Counted from the first letter of the stretch, positions 1-17,937 are shown. The stretch: 64,000 nucleotides of DNA from Candidatus Latescibacterota bacterium (GCA_965248435.1 OZ252100.1:2272001-2336000), one strand, 5' to 3'. A program made the numbers and translations. The notes: generated from the letters alone by a model not told the origin.

Positions 1-1276
1 CGAACCCGGCGTCAGTGACCGTCCCGTAGCTCTGAGTAGTGCTACCGTCGGCAGCAGAATTGAAATCCCCCACCAGGATGACCGGAAGGTCCTCGTCGCT
101 CAAGACCTGAAGCAACTCGGCCGCTTGGGCCTCCTGGATGGGCGCGAAACTCTTCGTCTCCAGGTGTGTGCTCACGAACCGGACGGTCCTCCCGCGGATC
201 GTAGCATCAACTGCGGCCCAGCCTCGGAGGACGGTGATGGGCGCACCCCCACCCACAGGAACGGCGAGGTTGGTCGAGAAGTTCTCCACCTGGACGTTCG
301 CAACTTCGACGTCGGCCCGCGCAAGGATCACCTCGCGGTCCGTGAGTCGAAGATCGTCGAACAGCGGAGCGCCCTCATCGGTGAACCCGCTCACCATCGG
401 CAGTTCGATGTCGGCATTGGTCGTCGTCGCAACCGCACGATACGACAGACCTCGCGCATCCAGTTCCTCCAGTAGGATGGAGAGATAATCGAGCACAAAC
501 GCCGTTGCGGATGTCGGGTTCCCGGCCAGGAAGTCGCCCGGGGATTGGATGCGGAACTGCGAAACTTCCTGCAGCCCCACGAGGTGAGGTCGTGACGCAG
601 CGATCTCATCGGCGATGGCCCGCGCTCGCTCGGGAAAGTTGGTCGCCTGAATGCCCAGCCACCCCTCAGTCACAAGCCCGGGAATCGCCTCGGGCGAGGG
701 CGCAGAAAGAATGGGGTCGATCGGAGCGCCCAGGTAGAGATTCCTCGTCATGGCGATTACCGAGGTACCGGAGCCGACGTCTGCCGGTCCCTCTGTGGGC
801 AGCGAAAGGAAGTTCGGCTTTCCGCCGTTGAGAGGGATACTGCCCCAGCTTCCAACCTGCTCGCCAGACACAGGATCGGTTGCCCTAGCAACATAGTAAC
901 CTGAAACGCCGACATGCCTGAACTGTCCCGTCGTGGGTGTCTCGACCTCGATCACAGCCCGACCATTCGTATCGGTGGTTCCTTCCCACCGAAAATCGTG
1001 ACTTTGACCGGAGATCGAACGGGAGAGGGCCACTACCACGCCTTCGAGTGGGGCCTCGTCTCGGGTCACGGTCGCAACGACCTCAAGATGGGTCGACACC
1101 GGTCCCGAAGCCCGTTTCGCCAAACCGACGATCGAAGTCTCCTCGCCACCGCCCGGTCCGAGAACCGACATGCCTCCCCCGTCACTGCCACACCCGGTCA
1201 ACGCAACGGCGAAAGTAAACACCATCGCGAACGCATGCGGATCTTTAAACTGGTCCACAAACTGTTTTGGTTTCAT
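1..1276 (-). CDS. Lipoprotein with an N-terminal Ig-like domain and an endonuclease/exonuclease/phosphatase (EEP) domain; 3' end runs off the window
   Basis: Not in the ORF track; translated by hand. ATG at 1276 overlaps the MMPL stop (ATGA) and follows an AAGGAGGAG RBS. Reads MKPKQF...VALTG-C (lipobox), then the EEP motifs MTRNLYLG, VGLQEV, VSTHLE and VILVGDFNS. Confidence 0.85.
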   Translation of the reverse strand, partial: MKPKQFVDQFKDPHAFAMVFTFAVALTGCGSDGGGMSVLGPGGGEETSIVGLAKRASGPVSTHLEVVATVTRDEAPLEGVVVALSRSISGQSHDFRWEGTTDTNGRAVIEVETPTTGQFRHVGVSGYYVARATDPVSGEQVGSWGSIPLNGGKPNFLSLPTEGPADVGSGTSVIAMTRNLYLGAPIDPILSAPSPEAIPGLVTEGWLGIQATNFPERARAIADEIAASRPHLVGLQEVSQFRIQSPGDFLAGNPTSATAFVLDYLSILLEELDARGLSYRAVATTTNADIELPMVSGFTDEGAPLFDDLRLTDREVILARADVEVANVQVENFSTNLAVPVGGGAPITVLRGWAAVDATIRGRTVRFVSTHLETKSFAPIQEAQAAELLQVLSDEDLPVILVGDFNSAADGSTTQSYGTVTDAGF

Positions 1277-3696
1277 TTTTCTCCTCCTTCTTTAAGACGT
1301 AGGGTCACTGTCTCACCCCTCGCCGTACCTCCCTTGACGTTTTCAACGATGGCACCGGCAGGGGTCCCTACGGCATTCCTGAATTTCAATCTCGAATCCT
1401 GCGACAAGCTTTTGAGCGCCTTCAGCTGCCTGTGGTGATGCAGCGGCGGCGCTTTCTTCAAGGCAAAGGCTGTGAGCGGGGGAAGCAAGACCAGGCTCCC
1501 GAAAGCGCAAGTGAGCATCGTGAGAGAAACCAACAAGCCAAGATTCTGGATGGGGGAAAATCCCGAAAAGGCGAAGACGATGAATCCCAGCACGTTGGAC
1601 GCCACGTCGAAGAGGATCGCTTTGCCTGCGGTGAGCATCGTGCGCTGAGTGGCCTCCTCGATCGCATGCCCATTGGCTCGCTCTTCCTGGAGCCGCGTGA
1701 AAAAGTGGATTGCAAAGTCCACCCCGATCCCTACCGCCATCGACGTGATGATGGCCGTGGCCATGTTCAGACGGATGCCGCAGAAGCCCATGATCCCGAA
1801 GGTCAAGAGCGTGGCAATCGTGAGCGGAATCACGCTCAGGAGTCCCTTTGCGGCGGATCGGAACGCGAACATGCAGAAGGCAAAGACCAGGAAGATGGCC
1901 GCCGCGATGTTGTAGACCTTGCCGATGGCGACGTAGTGATTCTGAGCGATCCAGATCAGGACCGACCCGCCGAACGCCACACGGACGTCCTCTGGAAAGT
2001 GCACGCGGGCGAGATCCTGCAAACGGCGGTAGATTCTCAATTGTTCCTCGTGGTCTGTGGCCGTAATCATCACCGTGATGCGTGCTCGACGATAATCCTC
2101 ATCCACCCACGCCGTAAGTTCCCGTTCGCCGGCGGACCCAGAGAGGAGATCAAAGGCGGCCTCGATCTCTTGTTCTGAATCAGGAATCGAAAAAGGAACG
2201 GGATGCTGACGATGCACCGTCGAATGGAGATGCCGCAATGCGTCGATCACAGATTCCGAACGGCTCACATCAGGCACCTTTCCAGCGGCACGTTGAAAGC
2301 CGATGAGCGACTGCAAGAAGGTGGGATGTTTCACCACATTGGGTTCATCCCCTTCCACCATCACATTGAAATACCGGACTCCGGAGAAACGGTCGTTAAA
2401 GACCCGAGTCGCCTTCCGAACCGGATGACCTTCGGGGAAGAGTTCAACAGGGTCGAGGCCCAGCCGGATGCGTGTGATTCCGATGCCAGATGCTACGATC
2501 AGCAGGAGTGTCACGACCAGTACGAGGCGTCCGTGATTCAGAGAAAATCTTCCCAGGCTGAGGAGCAGCCGTTCGCCTATGCTTCGTGAGCGATGTTCCG
2601 GCTGTTTTGGAGGCTGCTTTAGGAGAGTGAGAATGGCGGGCAGCAGAACGATGGCCAGCAGCATGGCAGAGCCTATGCCCGCCGCTGCAAACATGCCGAA
2701 CTCCCGGATGGAATTGACCTGGAACAGGAGCAGGGTCAACGTGCCGATTCCCGAGGTGATTCCTGTCAACAGAACCGGCAGACCCAACCGCTGCAGCGCG
2801 TGACGGATGGCGGTTTCGCCACGATGGGATTCACTGTTGTATCGGTGGATGACGTGGATGCCATAGGAGCTTGCTGTGGCGACTAGGAGGATGGGGATCG
2901 TGGAGGTGACGACATTCAGTTCGAAACCGAGGTAGCCCATCAGTCCGAGCGTCCAGACGATGCTGATCAGGATGACAAGCAGGGGGAGTATGGTTCCTCG
3001 CAGGCTTCGGAAGGAAACAAAGAAGCCGAGAAGGACCAGGGCCACGGCCAGAGGCAGGAGGATGTGAAGGTCGCCTTCGATGCCGTCGTCGATTTCCTGA
3101 GCCACGATGAAGTCGCCCACCGTATACAGCCGTTCCGGCCCCTCAAATCTGTGGATGATTTCGCGAACCTGCCGGGCCACGGTTGCCTGGTCGGCGGTTC
3201 GAGAGACCCGGACGAGGATCTGGGTCGTAGATCCATCTTCCGAGACCAGGGATCGTGCAGGGGAGCCCTCCGCCAGGAGTTGCTTGCGATACGTGTCGAT
3301 GGCTTCGGGATGGGCCAGGAGAGTCGATAGAAGAGAGGCCTCTGCGTGTTGGCCGTCGTTCCGTGGCGCCGGCAACGTGGCAAGGCTGGCAATCCCGTCG
3401 GCAGCTACGCCTTGTACGGTTGCCAGGGCGCCTGAAATCTGTGCGATTTTTTCCAGGCTCGCGGGCGAAAAGAGGTCTTCGCTTTCGACGGCGACCATCA
3501 TGATCTGTTCGTTGCCAAATACCTCCTCGAAACGCGCATTCGTCCGGATGATCGGATCGCTTGCCGGGAGATCGCCCTCGTAGTTGTTCCGGGTTTCCAG
3601 GCGGGTCATGCCAAAGGCGGCGGCCAGAGTCACGAGCGAACAGCACAGGATGATGGATCTTGGATACTTTACGATGATGTTGGCGATGCGATTCAT
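1273..3696 (-). CDS. MMPL/RND-family exporter
   Basis: 807 aa with two repeats of TM + periplasmic domain + 5 TM; motifs ATASSYGIH and GIGVDFAIH. Confidence 0.92.
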   Translation of the reverse strand: MNRIANIIVKYPRSIILCCSLVTLAAAFGMTRLETRNNYEGDLPASDPIIRTNARFEEVFGNEQIMMVAVESEDLFSPASLEKIAQISGALATVQGVAADGIASLATLPAPRNDGQHAEASLLSTLLAHPEAIDTYRKQLLAEGSPARSLVSEDGSTTQILVRVSRTADQATVARQVREIIHRFEGPERLYTVGDFIVAQEIDDGIEGDLHILLPLAVALVLLGFFVSFRSLRGTILPLLVILISIVWTLGLMGYLGFELNVVTSTIPILLVATASSYGIHVIHRYNSESHRGETAIRHALQRLGLPVLLTGITSGIGTLTLLLFQVNSIREFGMFAAAGIGSAMLLAIVLLPAILTLLKQPPKQPEHRSRSIGERLLLSLGRFSLNHGRLVLVVTLLLIVASGIGITRIRLGLDPVELFPEGHPVRKATRVFNDRFSGVRYFNVMVEGDEPNVVKHPTFLQSLIGFQRAAGKVPDVSRSESVIDALRHLHSTVHRQHPVPFSIPDSEQEIEAAFDLLSGSAGERELTAWVDEDYRRARITVMITATDHEEQLRIYRRLQDLARVHFPEDVRVAFGGSVLIWIAQNHYVAIGKVYNIAAAIFLVFAFCMFAFRSAAKGLLSVIPLTIATLLTFGIMGFCGIRLNMATAIITSMAVGIGVDFAIHFFTRLQEERANGHAIEEATQRTMLTAGKAILFDVASNVLGFIVFAFSGFSPIQNLGLLVSLTMLTCAFGSLVLLPPLTAFALKKAPPLHHHRQLKALKSLSQDSRLKFRNAVGTPAGAIVENVKGGTARGETVTLRLKEGGEK

Positions 3697-3719
3697 ACGA
3701 CCCTCTCGAAGTTAAAGTT

Positions 3720-4721
3720 CTATTTTCCTCGACTGGAAGAAACAACGTGGATCCCACTACCTCTCCTCGGCACGCGGCGCAATGCGGCTATTGAGGCAGT
3801 CGGGCGATCGAGAGCAAATGAACGATTCACGCGTGGTCGATAGAAATGCCAACCGGACTTTCGAGGGGACTTCGTATCGACAATGGGAAGAAGCGCGGTG
3901 CCGGTGAGCCCGGGAGTGCCGGCTCCAGAATGCAGCACGCGTGAGCGCAGCACGCGTTTGCTCGTTTGGAGCAGCGATAGGATGATAATCAAGACGACCA
4001 TCGTGAAGAGGTAGACCGTTTGATCGGGCTGAGTCATTCCAAGCGATGTCCTCAACACGAAGAACCCGCCGATTGGAATCGACGCGTTGTCGATTCCACC
4101 TCCTGCGATGGCTTCCAGGGTCATAAGGGCGAGTCCTACGAGTGTGGCGGTTGCCATGGCCTCGATCGCGCCCCTGCCGGTGAACAGCACGATTGGAATG
4201 AGGGTGCACAAGACAGCGATGAAGAGGAAAGAGATGGAGCCCTCCAGGCTTTTCTCGCCGCCTACCGCGCCGTAGCGATGGGATCCGTATCGGGATCCCA
4301 CCAAGGCAGCGGCGGTGTCGGCAAAAGTCAGTATCAGGAGCGGAATCGTGAACAAAATCGGGTCCCCTTCGGACAAAACGAAAAGCAGACCTGTTGCTCC
4401 AGGGAAAAGCAGATCCCCGGAAGACTGCCTTTCCACTCCACCAATCACACGGCCGCAGCGCTGCCGCAGGCCTTTTACGGACCGGACTGCAACCAGTCCC
4501 ACGGTTGTCATTATGGCCAGGAGAACGACCGGCCAGACCGTGTGAAAGAGCCAAGGGAACGGGAGTGCCGTGATTCCGCCCCCTACGTGCATGAGCTTGC
4601 GCAAACACTCCGGATCGGGCTGGCGCCGCCGCTGAAACAAGCTCAATGTCACCATCAGTGTAGATACGCCGGCCAGTGTAGCAAGGATTCCGAACCAGGG
4701 GTAGAAGTCGTCTAAGCTCAT
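3720..4721 (-). CDS. Phytol/dolichol kinase-like membrane protein (CTP_transf_1 family)
   Basis: Motifs LRKLMH, DTAAALVG, KSLEGS and GIDN; multiple TM helices. Start placed at ATG 4721 after a GGAGAG RBS. Confidence 0.85.
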   Translation of the reverse strand: MSLDDFYPWFGILATLAGVSTLMVTLSLFQRRRQPDPECLRKLMHVGGGITALPFPWLFHTVWPVVLLAIMTTVGLVAVRSVKGLRQRCGRVIGGVERQSSGDLLFPGATGLLFVLSEGDPILFTIPLLILTFADTAAALVGSRYGSHRYGAVGGEKSLEGSISFLFIAVLCTLIPIVLFTGRGAIEAMATATLVGLALMTLEAIAGGGIDNASIPIGGFFVLRTSLGMTQPDQTVYLFTMVVLIIILSLLQTSKRVLRSRVLHSGAGTPGLTGTALLPIVDTKSPRKSGWHFYRPRVNRSFALDRPTASIAALRRVPRRGSGIHVVSSSRGK

Positions 4722-4768
4722 AGCGGTCTCTCCATAAATTTTAGTTTTACTGCGATGTTCTATGTGAT

Positions 4769-4784
4769 TGCAAGGGGCGTGCCA
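4769..4784 (-). promoter_or_regulatory. Sigma54 (-24/-12) promoter for the kinase-MMPL-EEP unit
   Basis: Minus strand reads TGGCACG-CCCC-TTGCA, a perfect consensus match, 48 nt upstream of the start codon. Confidence 0.85.
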
Positions 4785-4896
4785 TAGCAAGGATCATCTT
4801 CCATTCTAATGGTTAAGATTCTGTTATTACTGTTGATAGTCTCTTGTAGCCAGTACGGAATGAGGTACGGTTCAGCGTCTCTGGAAACGAGATTGC

Positions 4897-4930
4897 TTGC
4901 GCGACATTGCGGGAAGTTGCACGGTCCTGC
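4897..4930 (-). promoter_or_regulatory. Candidate upstream activator sequence (10-bp-phased GCAA repeats)
   Basis: Plus strand has TTGC at 4897, 4907 and 4917, and CTGC at 4927; about 113-145 bp upstream of the sigma54 site. Confidence 0.55.
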
Positions 4931-5048
4931 ACTTCTTCTGCCGCTTAGAATAGACCCTGTGGGAAGCGTAATCGTGATTGGCTGTGAGAAGGGTATGGCT
5001 TGGAGGATTCGGTGCTTCGCGGAAACAGAGGCGGTGCCCCGCGACCTT

Positions 5049-6155
5049 CTAGACGATCTCCTCCAGGACGAAATCGCCATAGAAGAAGGTCTTGTCGCGT
5101 TGATGTAGCCGGTAGGAGAACTGATCGAGGGAACGGAGTTGTGATGCGAGGTAGTCTGGTCGGCGACGGGGGGTCAGCAAGTTCCAGTAAGCGATGCGTC
5201 CGCCGGTGCGCCCGACGTAGATGAGCCTTTCCAGAATAAGATGGTGAGACTCGGGCGGCATGTACTCAAAGATGTTGCTCAGATTAAACCGATCGAAACT
5301 GTTCGCAGGCTGTTTCCTCAGGCAGTCCTCGACTGACTGGCAACGCCATTCTAGCGCCCTGAGATTGTTTCGTATCGCTTCGAAGTTCTCGGGTCGAAGG
5401 GCATAAGGCAACGCTGTCAGGTGCTTTCCAGTCAAGATCCACTGAAGGTATGGATTCCGAGCGGGATCCAGATCTATAATCCCGTGTCGCGTGCGCTCCA
5501 GGATGCGGTCCGCCACGGTACCCTCCACATATCTGAAAAAGTTTGGATCCCGACCCAGCCTCCCCATAACTCGCCGAGAAAAGAAGAGCTTGAAGAGACA
5601 CCTCCACCGCAACGTGTCCCAGTGCCGGCCGTAGAAGGCACGCCGTCTTTCGCTTGTGCGGCTTTCAAGAAGTTGGGCGATCCGATCCCTCGAATGAACC
5701 AGGGGAAGAACGCGGTTCCTGAAGAGGGCGAGGTAGCGCTCAAACTTTCCGCAATTACCGATTCCCCCGGCGATGGCATCCGGGTGGGCGTCCCAGAACC
5801 CGCGTGTCGCAGATGAGAGTTGCGAGCGACAGCGTCGGTAGAGAGAAGCACGATTTAGTCCAGAGGTAACTCCCATCAGTTCGAGAAGCTCTGGATGGCG
5901 CAGCTCCTGGTAGGCGGCGACACGAAGCTCGAGACACGCGATCTGGGCCGGGCTGAGGTCCAGGGCCAACAGCCGCTCTGGTCCCTTGCTCAACAAGGCC
6001 ATACAGTTGTCACCGGCGGAAGCGATGGAGAGGCAATGGTCGCCTGGCTGAATATCCAGACCTTCTAGAAGGATGTCGGCATCCTCCCAGCACTGGGCGT
6101 ACCTGATAATGGAGAAGTCGGCGTCGACGCACGCACCGCGGCATTCGGAAATCAT
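5049..6155 (-). CDS. DUF3419 / BtaA-like SAM-dependent (3-amino-3-carboxypropyl) transferase
   Basis: Motifs IRYAQCWED, SIASAGDN, DLSPAQ, GKFE and LSNIFEY; AGGAGG RBS. Confidence 0.88.
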   Translation of the reverse strand: MISECRGACVDADFSIIRYAQCWEDADILLEGLDIQPGDHCLSIASAGDNCMALLSKGPERLLALDLSPAQIACLELRVAAYQELRHPELLELMGVTSGLNRASLYRRCRSQLSSATRGFWDAHPDAIAGGIGNCGKFERYLALFRNRVLPLVHSRDRIAQLLESRTSERRRAFYGRHWDTLRWRCLFKLFFSRRVMGRLGRDPNFFRYVEGTVADRILERTRHGIIDLDPARNPYLQWILTGKHLTALPYALRPENFEAIRNNLRALEWRCQSVEDCLRKQPANSFDRFNLSNIFEYMPPESHHLILERLIYVGRTGGRIAYWNLLTPRRRPDYLASQLRSLDQFSYRLHQRDKTFFYGDFVLEEIV

Positions 6156-6167
6156 CGTCAAACCTCC

Positions 6168-8861
6168 TTAAGAGGGTTTGCGGTCGAGCAGCTCCACGAC
6201 TCCGGTCTGGCCATCCAACCTCATTCCCGTCTTCAGGATCCGAGTGAGGTCCCTGACGCCCACCACCGTGGGAAGTCCCATCTCTCGCGCGACGATAGCG
6301 GAGTGAGAAAGAAGGCCCCCCCGCTCCACCAGAAGTCCAGATGCCGAAGGAAAGAGCGGGATCCAACCCGGATCTGTTCTCAGGGCCACGAGAATCTCGC
6401 CATCCAATTCCATGCTTTCATCCGGGGAGAGGATCACTTTCACATTGCCTTCGACACGACCGGGACAGCAACCCGTGCCCTTCAGGCGGTTCCCGTCCAG
6501 GCCTTCGCCATCGGAGGCGTCCTCATTCGAGAAACAATCGTTCGACCAGTATACGGGGCCGTGCGTCGAGAACCGCCGAGCCGGTTCCAGTTTTTCGTAG
6601 CGAGCGTATTCGGCCTGTCGAAGGGCAACCAGGGCGCGCAGATCCTGGACGGTCAGGGAGCCTTCGACTGTGCCGTGAAGCTCCTCGAGGGTCAGATAGA
6701 AAATGTCCTCCGGGCGATCGATCATCGACCGAAGGGTATAGTCATTGCCGATTCCGTAAAACATCGCGCGAACCACCCCGTAAATTCGCGTCCTGCAAAA
6801 ACGCGTGGTTTCACGGTTCCTGACCGCTTTGCGGGCGTGCTTGAGCACCCGCAGATAAACGAAGCGTCTGGCGACCGTGAGCCCGCTACGAACGACCTTC
6901 TCTGCAGCCGTCCTGATCGCGCGCTCCCTTCCTTCCTGGGCCTCGAGCTCTGTAGATCCGGAGCGCAGGTAGTTCTTGAGACAGACGAAGAGGAAAGACG
7001 GATCCTGGTGTAAGTCCTTTTGCTCCAACTTCATTTCGTTCATGCAGCGGAAACCGTACTGCTCAACGTAATGGTCGATCTTGGTGAGAAATTCCGTGTA
7101 GCCCGATCTGTTCAGCACCTCGAGACACGTTTCCTCAGGCTCGGATTCGATCAAGCGCCTCAGCCCAGAGTCGCCTGCGACTTCGACGGCAAGCCGTATG
7201 AGCTCACGCGTAGGCTCTGCAGACTCGATGCTTCCTTCGCCGCACAGCAGATCGTTCTGCAGGCCGTCTCCAAGGTGTCCCAGCCACCTCGAAGTAAGCT
7301 TCTTCAGGAGACCAAAATGGATCATGCAGAGATAGTCATTGACGATGGGTGCCTTCCAGTGCCACAACAAACGAGCTTCCAACTCTCGAAAGTCCGCGAG
7401 TATCTGGTCCGCTCGCATGCGGGAGTAATCCTTCTTTCGGAACTCGCCGTAGACCTCGTGAAAATGGGAAAGGAATCGATTCACCATCGACTGAATGACG
7501 AAATGAAAGCCCAAGAACTTGAGGCCGGTAACTAGACGTCGCAATCGGGCGGCCATTCTTCCGTACTTTCCTCCTCCTGCAGTTCGGTCGGCCAGCTCCG
7601 CCTCCAGGCTCCGGTCGGTTCCCATCATCGTCTCCATAAACGCACGGTTGTGTCTGTATAGTGGCAGGACACTCGTCAGCCGATACCAGTTGAGGAGGTT
7701 GTAGTAGATCCTGCCATTGAAGCAGCCGAGCATGTTGCTGAGGAAGCGGTCCATCCTCCGAATTTGCTTTCGAGGGAGCAGCAAAATTTCACAGAACTGC
7801 TGGTATACCCGGTGGTATGCAAAACGGGCAAACGTGAACGTAAGCGGCAGAGTGATACCTCCGTAACTCTCAACGATGTTGGAGTTGTCCCAAATCTGGA
7901 ACAGGCCTTCACGACCCTGTAAGGCCGTGGTGACGGGCCGAGACTGAAGCAGATAGAGGCGCCCATCCTTCAAGCCCCATTCGATGTCCTGGGGGTGTCC
8001 GTAGAATCCCTCCACACTTTTTCCCATTGAGGCGAGCTGCACGAGCTCTTCCCGAGTGAGCGAAGGGCGCTCCTTTAGTCCCTCGGGCACGGATGTTTCT
8101 GTAACGCCTCCCCCCACATCTCTTCTCACCAGTTTCCGAGGCTTGGGCACGATTTCCTGACTGATGACCCGATCGTTTTCCTTGTCGAGTACAAACGTGT
8201 CGCCGTCAAACCGGCCCGAAACGAGCCCCTCACCGAGTCCGAAGACGGAGTTTATCGTAACCCTCGAACGATCATTCTTCACGGGATCACAGGTGAAGAG
8301 CACGCCGCTCCTGTCGGTCTCTATCATCTCCTGAAAGACCACTGCGACGTCGATGTCACCGGTGGGATCCACACAGCGTTGCGTTCTGTAGCTGAGACTG
8401 CGTTCCGAGTAGGCGGAGGCCCAGCACGCCTTGACCTTTTGCAGGGCCTCTTCTGGAGACTGGATGAAAAGAAAGCTGCTCAGTTGGCCGGCAAAAGAGT
8501 GGTCGTGCGAGTCCTCACCGACTGCCGAAGACCTCACTGCGATAGGGGCCGGATCGAAGAGGGCATAGGCTGCCCTAACTTCTTCCTCGACATCAGGGGG
8601 AAGCGGTGTTTGGAGTATGAGTTTCTGAATTTCGGCTGAAACCCTGGCGTGATCCTCAAGTTGCTTCAGATGGTCACCGATGGCGCGCTCCAGACCGGCG
8701 GCGCGTCGGAAGCGCCTGAACAGGTCTGCGCCCAGGATGACCCACCGCGGGACGGGGAACCCCTCCCGCGTCAGCAGGTAGAGATTGAAGCCTTTCCCTC
8801 CGGCCTCTCTTCGTGCGAAGGCCTGGGGAGTCTGTTCGGTGATGAGATTGGCAGGTGTCAT
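6168..8861 (-). CDS. PEP-utilising-type ATP-dependent phosphotransferase (rifampin phosphotransferase/PigC-like architecture)
   Basis: ATP-grasp motifs GGKG, AVRSSAVGED, SFAGQ, DIEW and LQSRPVT; large central domain; C-terminal His-swivel TDPGW...LLSHSAIVARE. Start at 8861 is coupled to the UbiA stop. Confidence 0.9.
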   Translation of the reverse strand: MTPANLITEQTPQAFARREAGGKGFNLYLLTREGFPVPRWVILGADLFRRFRRAAGLERAIGDHLKQLEDHARVSAEIQKLILQTPLPPDVEEEVRAAYALFDPAPIAVRSSAVGEDSHDHSFAGQLSSFLFIQSPEEALQKVKACWASAYSERSLSYRTQRCVDPTGDIDVAVVFQEMIETDRSGVLFTCDPVKNDRSRVTINSVFGLGEGLVSGRFDGDTFVLDKENDRVISQEIVPKPRKLVRRDVGGGVTETSVPEGLKERPSLTREELVQLASMGKSVEGFYGHPQDIEWGLKDGRLYLLQSRPVTTALQGREGLFQIWDNSNIVESYGGITLPLTFTFARFAYHRVYQQFCEILLLPRKQIRRMDRFLSNMLGCFNGRIYYNLLNWYRLTSVLPLYRHNRAFMETMMGTDRSLEAELADRTAGGGKYGRMAARLRRLVTGLKFLGFHFVIQSMVNRFLSHFHEVYGEFRKKDYSRMRADQILADFRELEARLLWHWKAPIVNDYLCMIHFGLLKKLTSRWLGHLGDGLQNDLLCGEGSIESAEPTRELIRLAVEVAGDSGLRRLIESEPEETCLEVLNRSGYTEFLTKIDHYVEQYGFRCMNEMKLEQKDLHQDPSFLFVCLKNYLRSGSTELEAQEGRERAIRTAAEKVVRSGLTVARRFVYLRVLKHARKAVRNRETTRFCRTRIYGVVRAMFYGIGNDYTLRSMIDRPEDIFYLTLEELHGTVEGSLTVQDLRALVALRQAEYARYEKLEPARRFSTHGPVYWSNDCFSNEDASDGEGLDGNRLKGTGCCPGRVEGNVKVILSPDESMELDGEILVALRTDPGWIPLFPSASGLLVERGGLLSHSAIVAREMGLPTVVGVRDLTRILKTGMRLDGQTGVVELLDRKPS

Positions 8862-9772: not shown

Positions 9773-11503
9773 TGGGCTTGCTCCTCTTGCAGTTGAAGCC
9801 GGAGCAGATCGTATTCCACCTTGCTGTGATGCCGGGGATCCATAGGGATCATCTCTCGGAAGACGACCTCGTGGACTGGAAGACCATTCTTCGACATCAC
9901 ACGCTCGATCTCACGCCGCCACCCGGCCCCGTTACTGCCGGGGACCGCGCACGGATCACCGGGAACGATGACGCATACGCATCTTTCCCCGAGGGTCGGG
10001 TCGGGCATGCCCAGGTAGGCGGCGAGCCTAACAAAAGGAAGGTTCTTCATGATGATCTCCGCCTTGACAGGAAACACATACTTGCCATCCGTCTGTATGG
10101 CGTTGTGGACCCGACCAACGATCCATAGGTGGCCATGTCTGTCTATGCGCCCCAGGTCGCCGGTGCGGTGGTAAACGACACCGGTGGTGTCGCGGATCTT
10201 GGCCAGACGGAAGGCATTCGGATCGTTGTAATAGTCCGAACAGACGTGCTCACCCGCGACGATAAGCTCTCCAACCTCCCCGGGGCGCACTTCGAGATCC
10301 TCCCAGTCCTCTTCCGACTGCAGATCGATAGGGCCCCGAGTGATTTTCAGAAGCTTCCAGTCGAGCCCGGGGTGGATCGGACCCACGTCCACACCTTCGT
10401 CCACACCTTCGTCCACGCATTCGGAATCCGCCTTGTCAAGCGACTTCCCTGCCAGAAGCTCGCGGGCCTCGATGTGGGCGATGGGTTCCACCTCGGTAGA
10501 GCCATAAAGCACCAGCACATCAGAACCGGGAGCGGTAGTCGTGAAATCGATCAGGTCATCTCGGCTTATCGGCGCCCCACCTGTGATGCGATCGCCTGAG
10601 ATATTTGATGGATATTCGGTTCCGAAGGCAATAACGGGAGACTGAATTCAGCAGGGATGGCGAAAAAGTGGCACACGTAACATTGCAGGCCTTCATCTGA
10701 GCCAGCAATGTCAGAGGGTCGTGCTCACTGGGGGCCCCAAGGTCGATGGCAGGGATGACGGTCGTCGCCCCGGCGGCGATGTTGTTCAGGCAAAAGATCG
10801 GGAAGACGGGAAGGTCGACATCAGACGGCAGATAGGGAATAATCTCATTCAGGGCATAGTGCTGGCCCGCCAAGAAACGATGTGTCCGGTTGGCGCCCTT
10901 TGGCTGACCGGAGCTTCCCGTTGTGAAGGTGATGAGCGCCGTATCCTCCTGCGCAACTGGAGTGACAGCCGCTTCCGCTTCCGTCTCGATCAGCTCTTCG
11001 ATGCTGGCGGTGTATACCTTGTCTGTGGGGCCCGCCGAGACCTTGATGGGTATCGAGACCAGCCCGGGTTCGGCTTCATAAGCGAGAAACGCCTGGTCCA
11101 GGCTTACCATGGCCTTTGGCGTGGTCATTTGAGCGGTGACGCCCAGATTTCGGCGCCTGGCCCAGGAGTCCAGGAAAACAGGAATGGCGCCTATTCGCTG
11201 AAGAGCAAACATCACTGTGTACATTCCGACTGACATCGGGAGGAAAACGATTACGCGATCCCCTTTTTGAATGCTCAACTCGCGGAAGCCTGCCGCCATC
11301 CGACGGACGCCCCGGGCAAACTGATCCAGCGTAATGGACTCGTGATCGAGGAGATCGTCGAGTCGAAAGGACCAGCGACTTAGTTTTTCCCGGGGAACCC
11401 AGTGGAAGATGATATGCTCCGGGTCTTTCTCCAGATTGTGCTCTATAAAGGTGACGACGTTGTTGTCCGGTGTGTCACCCGCCCTGTACCCGATGGTGCT
11501 CAT
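9769..11503 (-). CDS. AMP-binding (ANL) enzyme, OleC-like; frameshifted near 10585-10592
   Basis: N-half has ITFTTGSSGQPKG. After a frame change the sequence continues ITGGAPIS...YGSTEVEP, HRTGDLG and PMDPRHHSKV. The two track ORFs (10556-11587 and 9769-10518) form one gene; AGGAGG RBS before ATG 11503. Confidence 0.85.
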
Positions 11504-11540
11504 GCTGCCTCCTTTGCAAGGACTCCTTGGTTCGCGGTGC

Positions 11541-12287
11541 TCATAGCTCGATTCCCAGCTTGCGTAGCGTTCGCACCTTTTTTCCATCTGGTGTCCTGGT
11601 GTAGATTGGACGCCTGCAGATATTGGGGATTCCTTCGGGCAGGGTTGCCTCCTGGTCGACTCGGTCGAATACGGTTGCGAGCGCCCCTGCTTCTTCGGGA
11701 CCTGTCCTGGACAGGTAGCTTAGATAATTGCGTTCGGCACCCGAAGAAACCTGATGCCGCACGAGGATCTTCCCCGTATCGATCTTCGGCTCCATCACGT
11801 GAATCGTGAAGCCCGCTGGCCGTCCTTCGGCAAGCGCATAAAGGTCACAGAGAACTCCGCGGTGTCTCGGGAGGATTCCGTGATGAATATTCACACATCC
11901 CAACCGAGGCGCGTTCAGGATCCTTGAGCGATAGATGCAGCGGGTCCTCACATTCACCACAAGATCGATATCCTGCGCTTCAATCCATTCAGCGACCCAG
12001 TCCTCATTCACACTCTTAGCCCGTAAAACCGGAAGGCAGTTTCTCTTGAAAAGGCGCTCGCGCTTCTTGAGGGGAAGCTCAGCAATGTTCCGTACCAGTG
12101 TTTTGGCGATCCCTCGAGCCCCCTGCCAATAGATGCCCCCGAGGCTGCCGACCAAGTTGATAGAATGCCCTCCGAGAAGCATGAGGCCGGCGAGGTGACG
12201 ACGCGAGCGCACAAACAGTTCCTTGAAAAATGGCTGATGGTTGTCGGGCACGTAAGTCAAAGCTGAGGTCACGATCAATGCTTTCAT
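11541..12287 (-). CDS. Formyltransferase family protein (Formyl_trans_N)
   Basis: Motifs NIHHGILPRHRG, GFTIH and IDTGKI. Confidence 0.85.
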   Translation of the reverse strand: MKALIVTSALTYVPDNHQPFFKELFVRSRRHLAGLMLLGGHSINLVGSLGGIYWQGARGIAKTLVRNIAELPLKKRERLFKRNCLPVLRAKSVNEDWVAEWIEAQDIDLVVNVRTRCIYRSRILNAPRLGCVNIHHGILPRHRGVLCDLYALAEGRPAGFTIHVMEPKIDTGKILVRHQVSSGAERNYLSYLSRTGPEEAGALATVFDRVDQEATLPEGIPNICRRPIYTRTPDGKKVRTLRKLGIEL

Positions 12288-12342
12288 GGCTTCGCCTAAT
12301 GCAGTTGTGAATTCCTTCCAGCGAGATCCGCTAATAGGGGAT

Positions 12343-12358
12343 TGCAAAGGGCGTACCA
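12343..12358 (-). promoter_or_regulatory. Sigma54 promoter for the formyltransferase-to-DUF3419 operon
   Basis: Minus strand reads TGGTACG-CCCT-TTGCA, 56 nt upstream of ATG 12287. Confidence 0.8.
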
Positions 12359-12462
12359 ATCGCGTTTACCCTCTCATCGAACTGTTCGTATCTGTTTCGT
12401 GAACAGCAATTTACAGAAATTGATTCTGAATACCTCCTCGCGGCGATAACGATGTGAACGAC

Positions 12463-12492
12463 TTGCGTGATGTTGCGCAAGACTTCGTGCAA
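12463..12492 (-). promoter_or_regulatory. Candidate upstream activator sequence
   Basis: Plus strand has TTGC at 12463 and 12473 (10-bp phase) inside TTGCGCAA/GTGCAA; about 105-120 bp upstream of the sigma54 site. Confidence 0.4.
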
Positions 12493-12494
12493 TC

Positions 12495-12529
12495 AAAAAA
12501 GGGCCCACACTTCGAAAAGTGTGAGCCCT
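12495..12529 (-). terminator. Intrinsic terminator of the enhancer-binding protein gene
   Basis: Hairpin GGGCTCACACTT-TTCG-AAGTGTGGGCCC followed by T6 on the minus strand. Confidence 0.8.
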
Positions 12530-12579
12530 CGATGCTCCGACTAAGCTCAGCCGATGTTGCGGCTTCTTTAAGTAGCTCT

Positions 12580-14595
12580 TTAGGCGATTATATCTGACTC
12601 CGACTGCGCTCGAAGCAAATCCCTTCCGTCCTGCGACAACTCGTAGACGCGAGCCGCCCCTCGCTTGTGCCAGTCCAGATAGCCGAGGTCGGTCAGCTTT
12701 CTCAGGTCGTTCTGAAACGTCCTTCGGGAATCTCCGCTTCCCGATGCAGGGGACGCGATACGATTCATCACCTCGTTTACCGCGGAACCCCCCTCCTGCC
12801 GATGAACGACCTCCAGAATCCGCCTCTGCCTCTGACTCAGGGATCGCAGAGGCGGAGCCGGCCTTCGGGTCTGCGTACCCAGCGCGTGAGAGATGTCTGA
12901 TTCCGTAAGGGTTGGGCCTTTGGCGTAAACGGCAACGGCGCGTTCGATTGAATTTATAAGATCCCTCACATTGCCCGGCCAGGCGTGGTTCATCAGCCGA
13001 TCGATCGCAGATCGCGAAAAGCCGCGGAGCACCTTGCCCGAACGCTGCGAGATCCGCTCGAGGAAGGTCTGAGCCAGCAGTGGGATATCCTCCGGGCGCT
13101 CCCTCAAAGGGGGCAACCGGAGAGGAAGGACATTCAGTCGGAAATAGAAGTCCTCTCGGAACTCACCCCGGGCAATCATCTCCTCCAGATCCCGGTTGGT
13201 CGCGGCGACGATCCTCACGTCGGTCTGAATCGTCTCAGTTCCCCCAACCCGTTCGAAGGCCTGTGTCTCCAGAACTCGCAGCAGCTTGATCTGAGTAACC
13301 TGCGGAATGTCTCCCACCTCGTCCAGGAACAGGGTTCCTTGGTGAGCCAGCTCGAACCGACCCGGCTTCGCACGGTCGGCGCCTGTAAACGCCCCCTTCT
13401 CATACCCGAACAGTTCGCTCTCTAGCAGCGTTTCGGAAAACGCAGCGCAGTTCACTGCCACAAAGGGTTTTTCCTGGCGTAAGCTGTTCTGGTGGACGGC
13501 CCTTGCGGCCAACTCTTTACCTGTCCCTGTCTCACCCAGGAGCAACACGGTTAGATCTGACGCGGCCACCTGTTGAATCGTCTGACGGACCTGACGCATC
13601 TGCGGACTGTCGCCGATCAACCCGTGAACCCGATCCTCACTTTCCAACGCGCGCACCCGCATCTCCAGCGTCTTGATCCGCTCGAGATAATACTCCAGAT
13701 CCTTCCGATGTATGGCCTCGAGAATCGTTTGCGAGCGGGCAAGAATCTCGCCGTCATCCTGCAGCCGGATCATACGCGTTTCCGGTCTCCAGGTCAGCGT
13801 CCACCCGCAGGAACAAGCCTTTGCGATTTCTGCCCGGGCGGGGTTGTCCAGCTCCTCAATCCGCCCGTGCATCTCAATGCGCGGATCCTCCGCAAACGTA
13901 TCCCCATATAGCTGAAGTGTGCCCTGGATATGGAGCGCGGTGTCCATGAAGAAGGCCCCGATGTCCTTTTCCAGCCCGAAAGGCTTGAGGCACGCCGCAA
14001 GCCGTTCACGGTTCGCATAGTGAAAGTGAATCTGAAGCTGGTTTTCCCCGTCGGCACGCATCTCGATATGGACAAGGTCGCCCGTAAAGATCTGGCTCAG
14101 GACCAACGGCCCCAGCCACTGCAACAGTACCCCGATGTTGCGCTGGTCGTGAGCCGGTGGCAAAGCGGTGATCAAGAGCCCAATGAGACTGATCCATTCC
14201 TTGTGGGGTTCAACGGCCACACCCCCACCGCCACGTCCCATCCCCACGCAAAAATATTCAGGTTTGGGGACATCGGAATAGGTCTTGGCGAATTCGAACA
14301 GGAACTGGACCACGTGGACAAACGTATAGCCCGGATGCGCCATCAACAGCTCGTACTCCTCTGGACTGGCAAGCGCACGGAGTTCCTCGGACAGGCGCTG
14401 CCCTGCGGCCGCATCCACCTCGTTCGTCAAATACCGCACCGTCGTCTGGGCCAGCCGATTCGTCACCACGATCGACTGTTCCTGGGGGCTGAGCGACGCA
14501 AGATCGGCGTTTAGACCCGTGATCTGTACCGCTTTTCGCAGCCGTTTGAGAAAATCAGATTCGGCGGCCGTCTGCGTGGACGACGGTTTTGCCAT
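12580..14595 (-). CDS. Sigma54-dependent transcriptional activator (bEBP) with an uncharacterised N-terminal domain and a winged-helix C-terminus
   Basis: Motifs [22 protein letters not shown] and WPGNVRDL. The C-terminus [10 protein letters not shown]...[12 protein letters not shown]...RGAARVY is wHTH-like rather than Fis-like. Start placed at ATG 14595. Confidence 0.92.
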
Positions 14596-14626
14596 GTGAG
14601 AGCTCCGGAAATGATGAAGAATCTGC

Positions 14627-14670
14627 GAAACTGTATGCAAGAAGATGCAATGATACGCAATCTCGCGCAA
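14627..14670 (+). promoter_or_regulatory. Candidate upstream activator sequence (four GCAA repeats at 10-bp period)
   Basis: GCAA at 14637, 14647, 14657 and 14667, plus GAAA at 14627; 122-165 bp upstream of the sigma54 site at 14792. Confidence 0.6.
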
Positions 14671-14791
14671 CGCCAAAAACGTCCCAGTGAATGAACCTCG
14701 TGGGACAGCGGATTCCGGATTCTGATCTATCTGACATAAAAATAACATCTTAAGAAAATTTATCTCCCTGCAGCAAGTTTTGGCAGCTGGG

Positions 14792-14807
14792 TGGCACGGC
14801 ACGTGCC
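14792..14807 (+). promoter_or_regulatory. Sigma54 promoter for the TonB-dependent receptor
   Basis: TGGCACG-GCAC-GTGCC, with GG-N10-GC spacing. Confidence 0.65.
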
Positions 14808-14976
14808 TATCCGGTCAACGGCCTATCGGGACTTGGACAGTCCACCCTCAGAGAAAGCGGATAATCCTCACAAAGACGAATCCCGAGTTTCCATCCCGAC
14901 GGCCCAATCTCGTGCAAAGCGATCAAAACATTGCTATAATACTAACGTCGGGCAAACCTCAGCGAAGAGGAGCGTC

Positions 14977-17875
14977 ATGAAAACCAGACTCATTTTCACC
15001 TTGCTCACACTCTGTATCGCGTTCGTAGAGGTCTCGGCCCAGGATGGGGGCGTCATCCGCGGGCGGGTCACAGATGCGGATACGGGTGAACCGCTCTCTG
15101 ACGTCAATATCACCGCCAAAGGCCCCGGGCTGCCTGAACCCGCCGGTACCGTAACGGACCCTGAGGGCAGGTACACGATCGACGGTCTACCCGCCGGCCT
15201 CTACGAACTGACCGTTTCCCACGTCGGATACGGAGGCGCGCACCGAAAAGGCGTGCGAGTCCAGATTGGAGCCACCGTCAGGCTCGATTTTTCGCTGGAG
15301 ATCAGACTCATCCCTGGTATGGAAATCACTGTAGAGGCGGTGTCTCTCGTCCCGGAACCAAACAAGGATGCCCCGGCCGGCACCTCAGTCGTGGATGGAA
15401 AACAGATCCGGGACCAGACCACGCTGAACCTGGCGGAGCCGATAAAGAATGAGCTCGCGGTCGACTACCACCAGACCGGTCTGGTGACTGGCAATACCGT
15501 CGTCAGGGGGTTCAACAACATATTCTCCGGCGCCCTCTTGACGCTCGTGGACAACCGGATCGGCCGAGTGCCGTCACTCCGCCTCAATGCCCACAACTTC
15601 ATACCGCTTACCCCCCTCGACATCGAGCGAATCGAGGTCGTTCGCGGCCCTGCATCGGCGCTCTACGGTCCCAACAGCGCCAACGGCGTGATGCACATCA
15701 TCACCCGCTCTCCCTTTCGCTCCGCAGGGACGACAATCAACATCGGCGGTGGGGAGCGGAGCCTGCGGAACTTTGCCTTCCGCCACGCGAACACCGTCAA
15801 CAACAAAGTGGGATACAAGATCTCCAGCCAGTATTACGCCGGCACCGACTGGAAATACGTGGACCCCGTGGAAGTCGAACGGAGAGGATCCAATCCACGC
15901 AGCTACGACGTCGAACGTACAACTTCGGAGATCCAGCTCGACTTCAGACCGACCGACGGGTTCAGCGCGATCATCTCAGGAGGTTTTACAGAGGCCAGCA
16001 ACATCGAGCTCACCGGTCTGGGCGCAGCCCAGGCAAAAGACTGGCGCTACACCTTTATTCAGGGCAGGCTGCAATTTCAGGAGTTCTTCACCCAGTTCTT
16101 CATGAACCGCAGCGACGCGGGCAAAACGACCCTCCTGCAAAGAGGGGATCTCATGGTGGACGAGTCGAGCCTGGCCGTTTTCCAGGCCAGGAATGCGACC
16201 AACCTGGGCAGGCACCAGCGATTCATCTACGGCTTCGATGTCCTGCGGACCCGACCCAAAACCGGAGGAACGATCAACGGGGAAAACGAAGATCGAGACG
16301 ATATCAACGAGTTCGGGTTCTACGTTCAGAGCAAGACGTCCCCGAGCGAAAAACTGGACCTCGTGCTGGCCGGCCGAATCGACCGGCACAACCACATCGA
16401 TGATCCGGTCTTTTCACCCCGTGCAGCGCTGGTCCTCAAACCCACAGAGGTACAGACCGTACGTCTCACCTACAACCGCGCCTTCAGCACACCGACCAGC
16501 AACAACCTCTTCCTGGACCTGGTTGCGAGCCCCGATGCCTTTGGCCTCGGGAAAAACTTTCAGCCGTCGCTCGGGTTCAATCCTGCCGTCGACGTCCGAG
16601 CACAGGCTGCCCTCGAAGGCTTTACATTCAAGCGGAATGCCAGCGGCCTCCCGATGTTTCGGTCCTCCTTTGCCCCCGCTGCCGGACTCTCCGCAGATCA
16701 GTTCATCCCTCTGCACGATCCCCAGTTCACGAACGTCATGTGGGGCATCGGACGGGGCGCGGTGCTCAACGGCTTTGTGCCGACGCTCAAGCAGCTCGCC
16801 ACGGGATCGATCGCCCAGCAGCTGATCGCCGGAGGGATGCCCGTCGACCAGGCACAGGCGGCTGGAGCCCAGCAGGCTGAGCTCTTAGCGGCGGCCTTCG
16901 AGGGCATCGTACCCGCCACCCTTCCGGGACTGAGGAATACCCTGGCGACCCTGAATCAGCAGACCCGGGGGTTCGACCCGATTTCAGACCTTAACGGCGC
17001 TGTCACAGAACTCCCCAAGATCAAGCCGACGATCACAGACGTTCGAAGTGGGGTTCAAGGGTCTGGTCGGCAGGAAGCTGCTTGTCGGTGCCGATCTCTA
17101 CCGGACACGAACAAGAGACTTTGTTGGACCGCTCCGTGTGGAAACGCCCAATGTCTTCCTGGATTCGAACACGCTGACCAGTGCCCTGTCGCAGTCATTC
17201 ACGCTAGCGCTGAATGATCCATCCGCTGCACAGCTGGCAGGGGCCCTGGCCGTGCTTGACGCACCCGGCCAGGGAGGCAACGGGAACGGCAGCGCGGTCG
17301 ATGAGCTGACCCGGCTCTTTGTCGCTGGCACGGACAACAACGGCGCCGCATTCATCCCGTATGGTACCGTCTCCCCGGAGCAGGCCTTCGACCCGGCTGC
17401 GGTCGTCCTCGCCTATCGAAACTTCGGCGAAGTGACCCTCTACGGTTTCGATCTGGGCTTCGAGCTTTATCCCAACCATCCCAACAACAACTGGGTCTTC
17501 AGCGGGAACTACTCCTATGTGAGTGAGAACCTGTTCAGGGACCTGGACGGGATCGCGGATATCGCGCTAAACGCGCCCCGTCACAAATTCAATTTTGGTG
17601 CAAACTATTCACGCCCTGGAACCGGACTTAGGTTGGGCGGCCGTGTCCGTTACAAGGACGCCTTCCCTATGAACTCGGGGGTTTACGTGGGCGATTTGGA
17701 AGCCTTCACAGTCCTGGATCTAAACGCGGCTTATGACCTGCCTATGAAGAACTCCAGTGCTGCGATTACGCTGAATCTCAACGCGAACAATGTATTGAAC
17801 AATGAACATCGGGAATTTGTCGGCGCGCCAGAGATCGGCCGGCTGGTATCCGGTGGGATAACCGTCGGCTTCTGA
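14977..17875 (+). CDS. TonB-dependent outer-membrane receptor with an N-terminal carboxypeptidase-regulatory-like domain; frameshifted near 17036-17040
   Basis: Signal peptide; plug motif IERIEVVRGPASALYG; C-terminal GITVGF. KPTIT continues in another frame as TFEVGFKG (ACAGACG where ACAGAGACG is expected). Confidence 0.9.
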
Positions 17876-17902
17876 AATAGCCAATACAAGGACCGTCAGC
17901 TC

Positions 17903-17937
17903 GCGCCCGGGTGGTGATCACCCGGGCGCTTTGTTTT
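17903..17937 (+). terminator. Intrinsic terminator
   Basis: GCGCCCGGGTG-GTGAT-CACCCGGGCGC-TTTGTTTT. Confidence 0.85.

Follow-up and report, generated by a model that had tools for sequence, protein, structure and literature searches.

A widespread gene cluster with a possible lipid product and its apparently transferred, partly eroded copy in a Candidatus Latescibacterota genome

The 64,000-nucleotide stretch of a Candidatus Latescibacterota genome analysed here (GCA_965248435.1, OZ252100.1:2272001-2336000; hereafter the window) carries, at positions 3720-12358, what may be one copy of a widespread, uncharacterised gene cluster for a lipid or lipid-linked metabolite, a reading to which we give a probability of about 0.45. 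Six genes form a real conserved set, and they encode a formyltransferase-like protein, an acyl-AMP/CoA ligase, a UbiA-superfamily transferase, a His-phosphotransferase, a DUF3419 protein and a membrane protein that we call memX. The cluster probably builds an unusual membrane lipid with an amino-acid-like head group. Comparison with related genomes suggests that the copy in the window was acquired horizontally and is partly eroded. The six genes are the following.

11541-12287, minus strand: formyltransferase-like protein of 248 amino acids, starting MKALIV (Pfam Formyl_trans_N, 55 bits)
9769-11503, minus strand: acyl-AMP/CoA ligase, PRK09274-like in NCBIfam, lying in two frames (10556-11587 and 9769-10518)
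8858-9772, minus strand: divergent UbiA-superfamily intramembrane transferase (Pfam UbiA, 35.4 bits, cutoff 34.2)
6168-8861, minus strand: Rph/PigC-type His-phosphotransferase (Pfam PPDK_N, 273 bits, and PEP-utilizers, 74 bits)
5049-6155, minus strand: DUF3419 (BtaA-family) protein with the S-adenosylmethionine (SAM) fold (Pfam PF11899, 231.3 bits)
3720-4721, minus strand: memX, a short-form membrane protein, CdsA/CarS/polyprenol-kinase-like by fold matches

The original prediction, which saw here a sigma-54-controlled lipid or prenyl modification cluster with its own transport, placed and named the genes in a way that the Pfam and NCBIfam annotation of the window bears out. It also described an operon with overlapping stop/start junctions. 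Three junctions are indeed ATGA overlaps (ligase/UbiA, UbiA/phosphotransferase and, downstream of memX, MMPL transporter/EEP lipoprotein), whereas the remaining ones are short gaps with ribosome-binding sites.

Conservation of the gene set

Related loci were assembled into two sets. For the genome set, the DUF3419 protein was scanned over one genome per species and the best 80 of 267 relatives were kept; their DUF3419 proteins are 49-65% identical to the window copy and come from many phyla, and many of the loci are cut by contig ends. These loci were searched with the window proteins by tblastn. The metagenome set consists of 80 loci fetched with an alignment of the formyltransferase, which is present in all 80 by construction.

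In the genome set the phosphotransferase is found in 69 loci, UbiA in 62, memX in 61 and the ligase in 54. UbiA and the phosphotransferase accompany DUF3419 together in 62 loci, and all five genes tested co-occur in 47 of the 80, so the genes do keep company elsewhere, as the original prediction implied, and this recurrence in other genomes makes the gene set more than chance. The formyltransferase was found in two genome loci (L005 and L049). The metagenome set contains the ligase in 70 loci, UbiA in 56 and the phosphotransferase in 51, and clustering by blastp adds DUF3419-like proteins in 58 and memX-like proteins in 26. The commonest gene order is HMG-CoA reductase (HMGR)-like protein, UbiA, phosphotransferase, DUF3419, memX (about 446 amino acids), GNAT, ligase, and it is complete in 15 loci. 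Nearest to the window in arrangement are L049/L096 (47-63% identity), where an HMGR-like gene stands ahead of the formyltransferase. A formyltransferase or a GNAT always adjoins the ligase in related loci.

The core genes are also present in cyanobacteria, Chloroflexota, Acidobacteriota, Verrucomicrobiota, Planctomycetota, Gemmatimonadota, Geobacteraceae and Bdellovibrio-type predators. Cultured carriers include Alkalilimnicola ehrlichii, Brevibacillus laterosporus and Desulfobulbus rhabdoformis, and no carrier has a known product of the cluster. Cluster variants in the metagenome set contain extra genes for a DAGK_cat/YegS-type lipid kinase and for an NAD_binding_4 ('male sterility') thioester reductase, and some of them provide a lipid context: a PlsC acyltransferase, an SRPBCC protein, and a LolA-like protein together with an ABC exporter of the MacB type.

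Three further features of the related loci can be recorded. The Bdellovibrio-type variant keeps a 711-residue protein (L097:6827-8962, plus strand) that has homologues in 24 metagenome loci, belongs to no Pfam family and gives a weak Rossmann-like signal at residues 476-579. Many variants encode an alpha/beta hydrolase either as a fusion with the ligase or just before it (L173:10744-13140 and L097:10744-11490, both plus strand), an arrangement that resembles the OleB-OleC fusions. Alkalilimnicola ehrlichii encodes, about 1.2 kb upstream of the cluster, a LuxR-type regulator that has an autoinducer-binding domain (L019:2972-3739, minus strand); no conservation of this neighbour was seen.

Properties of the cluster proteins

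The phosphotransferase has the domain layout of Rph, PigC and RedH, an ATP-grasp domain (PPDK_N) and a C-terminal swivel His domain. Pfam detected two domains in it, PF01326 (residues 87-382) and PF00391 (residues 888-955), and no TIM barrel. The protein passes NF004881 (1057.8 bits against a cutoff of 883) and stays under the equivalog cutoffs of RedH (418 against 1350), PigC (374.6 against 1300) and Rph (355.4 against 999). Since the TIM barrel is missing, the name attached to NF004881, 'phosphoenolpyruvate synthase', appears doubtful for this protein; the test for PpsA was likewise negative, with no PEP-utilizers_C match and 297.9 bits against a cutoff of 739.75 for TIGR01418.

The UbiA protein gave an AlphaFold2 (AF2) model with a pLDDT of 94.4, which Foldseek matched with probability 1.00 to 4od4, 6m31/7bpu and 4tq4. 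The highest TM-scores (0.62-0.67) were to digeranylgeranylglyceryl phosphate (DGGGP) synthase (6m31/7bpu), and 8j8j, a membrane transferase that uses phosphoribosyl pyrophosphate, was also among the matches. The alignment profile (A4) has DGGGP synthase as its best match (6m31, E 3.4e-6); the single sequence had no match among PDB sequences. Members of the UbiA superfamily canonically carry two Asp-rich motifs. The first is present as RxxDExKDxxxD (R68, D71, E72, K74, D75 and D79), and the position of the second is occupied by the invariant residues E197, R200, K201 and E208.

Residues 15-366 of the DUF3419 protein align with profile positions 5-382 of 385, which makes it a full-length domain, and the protein has 56-65% identity to homologues from many phyla. 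The formyltransferase is one of a distinct family of proteins of about 248 residues; 103 of 114 matches have the same length and single-domain layout. Bdellovibrionales, Halobacteriovorax marinus, Oligoflexia and Verrucomicrobiota are among the sources of this family, and N133, H135 and D148 are invariant in its alignment (A3). The ligase had been described as an OleC-like adenylating enzyme. It is an AMP-binding ligase, but in NCBIfam it matches PRK09274 best and the OleC beta-lactone synthetase second; with the OleC equivalog, whose cutoff is 900 bits, its two halves score 110.8 and 86.2 bits.

In memX a domain of about 235 residues is conserved, and the last 89 residues or so are not (alignments A1 and A2). 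The window protein matches only residues 3-240, approximately, of the 446-residue homologues and thus represents a short form, which also occurs in L049, L055, L028, L054 and L071. Its AF2 model (pLDDT 92.7) has CdsA as the top match both in Foldseek (4q2e, probability 0.99, E 9e-3, TM-score 0.32-0.35) and in VIA (Z 8.1 over 167 aligned residues, with CarS at Z 6.7), where values below about 13 are weak for helical bundles. The memX profile had no match among PDB sequences, and 2 of 25 relatives gave a weak DUF92 match. The pattern D-x3-A-x2-G ... K-S-x-E-G-S may resemble that of dolichol and phytol kinases. The earlier label 'phytol/dolichol kinase-like' has tentative support from the CdsA/CarS-type fold match and none from any Pfam family. 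An apparent link between memX and UbiA came from a fused open reading frame, and homology was rejected (direct BLASTP, E 1.4). In the long form of L019, the C-terminal extension of about 200 residues (L019:11835-12455, plus strand) gives a weak match to DUF92, the VTE6 family; the N-terminal CdsA-like domain of the long form gives none, and the window copy has no such extension.

Alternative genes in relatives and a proposed pathway

Slot occupancy was counted in the 66 loci in which the query gene is flanked by 8 kb or more on either side and UbiA and the phosphotransferase are both present. The reductase slot holds an HMGR-like gene in 33 loci and a fatty acyl reductase (FAR)-type gene in 19, never both, and is empty in 14. 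The kinase-like slot is filled by memX in 44 loci and by a DAGK-type protein (DAGK_cat) in 18, again never by both, with neither in four. The amine-cap slot contains the formyltransferase in 27 loci, GNAT in 37, both in none and neither in two. The HMGR-like protein of L019 reaches 379 bits with Pfam HMG-CoA_red and 324.8 bits with the NCBIfam HMGR model, which is under the cutoff of 441.8. The bacterial class-I HMGR homologues include FcrA (Grossi et al., PMC11948995). Two unrelated reductase families in one slot beside a ligase point to an acid that becomes first a thioester and then an alcohol. The three either/or slots yield directly testable predictions for each step.

In the proposed pathway the ligase would activate a long-chain acid, and an FcrA-like HMGR homologue or a FAR-type reductase would then reduce the thioester to an alcohol. 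memX or a DAGK-type kinase, together with the Rph/PigC-like phosphotransferase, would convert this alcohol to a phosphate or diphosphate ester, and the UbiA protein, which resembles DGGGP synthase, could then move the alkyl or prenyl group onto an acceptor. DUF3419 would attach a group taken from SAM, which, by analogy with BtaA, would most likely be 3-amino-3-carboxypropyl, and the formyltransferase, or GNAT in other variants, would cap the amine. Export would fall to an exporter next to the cluster, here the MMPL transporter in the operon with memX. We infer the order of the steps, the substrates and the 3-amino-3-carboxypropyl transfer. In this particular genome the first two steps would be impaired, with a frameshifted ligase and no reductase.

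Several points weigh against this reading. The functions of the enzymes and their product are read from gene content. For memX there is no Pfam family at E values up to 10, and the fold matches score only moderately. UbiA enzymes as a rule require an allylic diphosphate as donor, a role in which a saturated alkyl diphosphate would be out of the ordinary. The reductase is missing nearby in 14 of the 66 complete loci, which are moreover related to one another, and both sets of loci are defined by their query gene. No named FcrA was found among the best 120 of more than 7,998 matches to the HMGR-like protein. In the present genome the ligase is broken and neither an HMGR nor a cluster-type FAR homologue was found anywhere: tblastn with two HMGR-like proteins of the cluster (E up to 1e-3) gave no match, the FAR match was only marginal, and no cluster-type GNAT, PlsC or homologue of the 711-residue protein was found genome-wide. 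Finally, a cap gene beside the ligase fits a ligase that acts on an amino-acid head group equally well. Because the formyltransferase or GNAT is always beside the ligase, the ligase and the reductase may act on the capped head group rather than on the tail.

The most specific version of the membrane-lipid reading is a third bacterial route to ether lipids, in which a fatty alcohol would become an alkyl diphosphate, UbiA would form the ether bond, and SAM would supply an N-formyl- or N-acetyl-homoserine head group; stated this fully, it is improbable. Its early steps would be formation of the alcohol by the ligase with an FcrA- or FAR-type reductase, and phosphorylation by the Rph-like dikinase with a lipid kinase that depends on CTP or ATP. 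No such class of ether lipid, and no such employment of UbiA and PEP-utiliser enzymes, is known to have been described previously.

Predicted regulation

The main features that bear on the regulation of the cluster are the following.

12580-14802, minus strand: sigma-54 enhancer-binding protein (activator), start approximate (Pfam Sigma54_activat, 243 bits)
12493-12530, minus strand: hairpin and T-run after the activator gene, read from the sequence, which separates it from the formyltransferase operon
12343-12358, minus strand: sigma-54-type -24/-12 motif TGGTACgccctTTGCA, 57 nucleotides upstream of the formyltransferase ATG, with one mismatch
4769-4784, minus strand: perfect sigma-54-type motif TGGCACgccccTTGCA (TGGCAC-N5-TTGCA), 49 nucleotides upstream of the memX ATG

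Perfect TGGCAC-N5-TTGC[AT] sites number 16 in the genome of 5.67 Mb, and the extended 18-nucleotide motif TGGYACGCCCYTTGCAAT occurs in it only at the 12343-12358 site and at 4767-4784. A gene for rpoN is present (199.5 bits). With two near-identical promoter motifs, an adjacent activator and rpoN, the sigma-54 control that had been predicted is supported at the sequence level. The two predicted promoters probably drive a unit from the formyltransferase to DUF3419 and a unit of memX, MMPL and EEP, and the adjacent activator probably serves both. Similar motifs precede the HMGR-like gene in L049/L096 and L061, the formyltransferase (at about 55 nucleotides) in L105 and L107, and memX in L042, L109, L112 and L155. 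No activator is encoded within reach in the 160 related loci. The N-terminal region of the activator, about 380 residues, matches no Pfam family at E values up to 0.01, the best being RadC at 0.012, under the cutoff.

Sites shared by the two promoters for binding of an upstream activator were not significant, as 20 of 300 shuffles reach the observed score. Across the whole window, sigma-54-like matches with up to two mismatches are not enriched (41 observed, 49.6 expected); with up to one mismatch there are 7 against 3.33 expected, a number reached by 4 of 100 shuffles. A weaker motif, TGGCACggcacGTGC, lies at 14792-14806 (plus strand), about 126 nucleotides upstream of the start of the divergent TonB receptor and on the island side of the junction described below. 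It may place the receptor under the same sigma-54 control, or it may be due to chance. No sigma-54 motif was found before the TonB receptor or the MMPL gene in the related genomes G001 and G004.

Acquisition and state of the copy

DUF3419 was found in none of 21 genomes of the same family, and 3 of 31 genomes of the sister family gave distant matches (23-27% identity). A genome of the same genus (G001) lacks, at the syntenic site, a tract of about 24 kb that begins about 8.8 kb to the left of the window and ends at position 14967. The genes that flank the conserved set are the following.

1-1276, minus strand: EEP-domain lipoprotein with a lipobox, running past the window edge (the full gene, in L095, encodes 518 amino acids)
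1273-3696, minus strand: MMPL/HAE3 RND transporter (Pfam and NCBIfam)
14932-17875, plus strand: TonB receptor with a CarboxypepD_reg domain, lying in two frames (14791-17217 and 17048-17875)
18228-20444, plus strand: DUF3604/CehA-McbA-like metallohydrolase, a flanking gene

The original prediction had counted the transporter, the lipoprotein, the activator and the TonB receptor as parts of the cluster, and here it has to be revised. EEP and the activator were found by tblastn in none of the 160 related loci, and the activator is absent from the syntenic site of G001. The TonB receptor was found in 0 of 80 genome loci and 0 of 80 metagenome loci; it and the DUF3604 gene directly follow the island and have 80% DNA identity to G001, which lacks the cluster, so that the receptor belongs to the native flank. 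The frame of the receptor switches between about 16973 and 17061, and its counterparts are intact (981 residues in G001 and 996 in G004).

MMPL does not hold as a dedicated transporter of the cluster, being weakly matched in one genome locus (23% identity) and one metagenome locus (22%). Only 24 nucleotides separate it from memX, and it and EEP are predicted to be co-transcribed with memX here. Its closest relative (74% DNA and 66% amino acid identity) is in G004, a genome of the same family, with no cluster genes nearby. Because this relative stands in a TonB-receptor operon of a clusterless genome, MMPL looks like a gene of the lineage that was recruited by the cluster and not transferred with it. 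The G004 operon (L094, G004:C1:4313000-4332999, positions 4565-15558, minus strand) has a lipid-looking content of its own, unrelated to the cluster: a TonB receptor, MMPL, DAGK_cat, a 608-residue kinase-like protein, an Omp85-like protein and an ATG22/MFS transporter.

The ligase is broken by a frameshift of one nucleotide, and tblastn with the L049 and L005 homologues places the frame switch at 10592/10587. The contigs of X3 and X5, runs that are the probable source, match the window without a difference, frameshift included. A 99%-identical contig from run X7, which belongs to another study, has one nucleotide fewer at 10589, exactly at the frame switch. Since the frameshift is reproduced in X3 and X5, is absent from X7 and does not lie in a homopolymer, it is probably real and recent. 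The X7 strain and a short contig of run X8 also lack 12 in-frame bases at 10386, in the C-terminal half of the ligase; coverage of X8 extends to 17 of 30 bins, with the frameshift site outside them.

With no reductase and a frameshifted ligase, this copy would either use an alcohol from elsewhere or be decaying. The second possibility deserves the most attention among the alternatives, although we consider it unlikely: the locus may be a remnant of a transferred cluster that is being lost in this strain and makes nothing here. On the one hand, the frameshift is present in both probable source runs and absent from a near-identical strain, the genome has no reductase, memX is a short form with a non-conserved tail, and the cluster is found in none of the 21 genomes of the family. 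On the other hand, the other five genes are open and keep the residues that are invariant in their families, both promoter motifs are intact, short memX occurs in five other loci, and the 14 complete loci without a reductase show that this lack is not peculiar to the window. A second assembly, moreover, has the formyltransferase (98% identity) and the flanking DUF3604 gene (92%), probably on one contig, since 49,367 nucleotides is given as the longest contig for both representatives.

Two observations concern the surroundings of the cluster. The left part of the island (L095, G000:C1:2258001-2274000, positions 5215-13612) contains glycan-degradation genes unrelated to the cluster, namely GH127, DUF6785/DUF6784, an unassigned 504-residue protein, a BNR-repeat protein and a GHL10-like protein. 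The flanking DUF3604 protein has named homologues from Candidatus Poribacteria (59% identity), which hints weakly at the lineage of the host, and a DUF3604/CehA-McbA-like paralogue that is 41% identical lies about 75 kb away (G000:C1:2194886-2197042).

Alternative pathways

The scheme first put forward for the locus was a salvage pathway, in which a polyprenol would be converted to its diphosphate by the kinase-like protein and the phosphotransferase, transferred by UbiA, given a 3-amino-3-carboxypropyl group, N-formylated and exported. It is in keeping with the CdsA-type fold match of memX, with a possible resemblance of the memX motif to CTP-dependent polyprenol kinases and with the established use of prenyl diphosphates by UbiA enzymes, and the absence of the acid-to-alcohol steps from this genome would require an alcohol that already exists. 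In relatives, however, the ligase goes together with a fatty-acyl-thioester reductase, which favours an acid as the source of the alcohol over polyprenol salvage. One of the two fatty-acyl-type reductases is present in 52 of the 66 complete loci, the DAGK-type kinase and PlsC of some variants point to acyl or alkyl lipids, and nothing specific to polyprenols was seen. We therefore regard this scheme as distinctly unlikely.

That the product is a diffusible secondary metabolite is very unlikely. The ligase would then be an OleC-like beta-lactone synthetase, or the phosphotransferase a PigC-like condensing enzyme, as the OleC families among the second-best matches of the ligase, the RedH and PigC scores of the phosphotransferase (418 and 375 bits) and the hydrolase that many relatives have joined to the ligase or just ahead of it, in the manner of OleB and OleC, might suggest. 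These scores are nevertheless far under the family cutoffs, no OleA-type thiolase was seen in the clusters nor any thiolase in the window cluster, and two integral-membrane enzymes with LolA-like, PlsC and SRPBCC partners fit such a product poorly.

An isoprenoid-precursor pathway, with the HMGR-like enzyme of the relatives making mevalonate, could be read from the Pfam score of the L019 protein and from UbiA and a polyprenol-kinase-like protein in the same operon, yet the gene also occurs in cyanobacterial loci, and cyanobacteria use the methylerythritol phosphate route. It is hardly credible, given the sub-cutoff NCBIfam score of that protein, its replacement by the FAR type in other variants, the lack of any other mevalonate-pathway gene in the loci and the precedent of FcrA (PMC11948995).

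Comparison with known systems

The original prediction knew of no characterised pathway with such a combination of enzymes, and no paper describing the set was found in the literature searched, outside which lie most subscription journals and supplements. Two candidates were set aside: the UbiA and HMGR neighbourhoods mentioned in the accessible part of the Lipocone preprint are different ones, and the chlorosphaerolactylate paper, in its accessible part, merely lists a DUF3419 gene beside its own cluster. Solving the pathway would assign functions to DUF3419 proteins that occur without BtaB and to many proteins now named 'phosphoenolpyruvate synthase' and 'HMG-CoA reductase', and it could possibly reveal a new class of membrane lipids relevant to lipid biomarkers.

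The nearest precedent for the supply of the alcohol is FcrA with FadD, which provides precursors of wax esters and ether lipids (PMC11948995). Relatives of the cluster also pair a ligase with an HMGR-like or FAR-type enzyme, but the cluster has no WS/DGAT or AGPS partner, and the window has no reductase. For ElbD, a myxobacterial ether-lipid enzyme whose domain make-up we take from its citation in PMC11948995, the comparison is limited to what is cited there: acid activation, FAR-type reduction and PlsC-type acylation are carried by separate genes in some cluster variants, whereas no carrier-protein domain was seen in the cluster and ElbD, as cited, has no counterparts of UbiA, the phosphotransferase and DUF3419.

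Among the archaeal ether-lipid enzymes, memX is nearest to CdsA and CarS by fold. The cluster UbiA is nearest to DGGGP synthase in TM-score and profile match, yet is only 10% identical to it and has ExxRK...E in place of the second Asp-rich motif. Unlike the archaeal pathway, the cluster contains no geranylgeranylglyceryl phosphate synthase, and its alcohol seemingly comes from an acid by way of the ligase and the reductase. The phosphotransferase shares the two-domain layout of Rph, PigC and RedH and a strong profile similarity with them, although it falls below their equivalog cutoffs.

BtaA transfers a 3-amino-3-carboxypropyl group from SAM to a lipid hydroxyl. The absence of BtaB, pointed out in the original prediction, agrees with the lack of any methyltransferase gene in positions 1-14802, the part of the genome to which the search for BtaB was confined. 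With the BtaA/BtaB system for the betaine lipid diacylglyceryltrimethylhomoserine (DGTS) the cluster shares the full-length DUF3419 domain of BtaA; the partners of this domain are instead UbiA, the His-phosphotransferase, the ligase and either the formyltransferase or GNAT.

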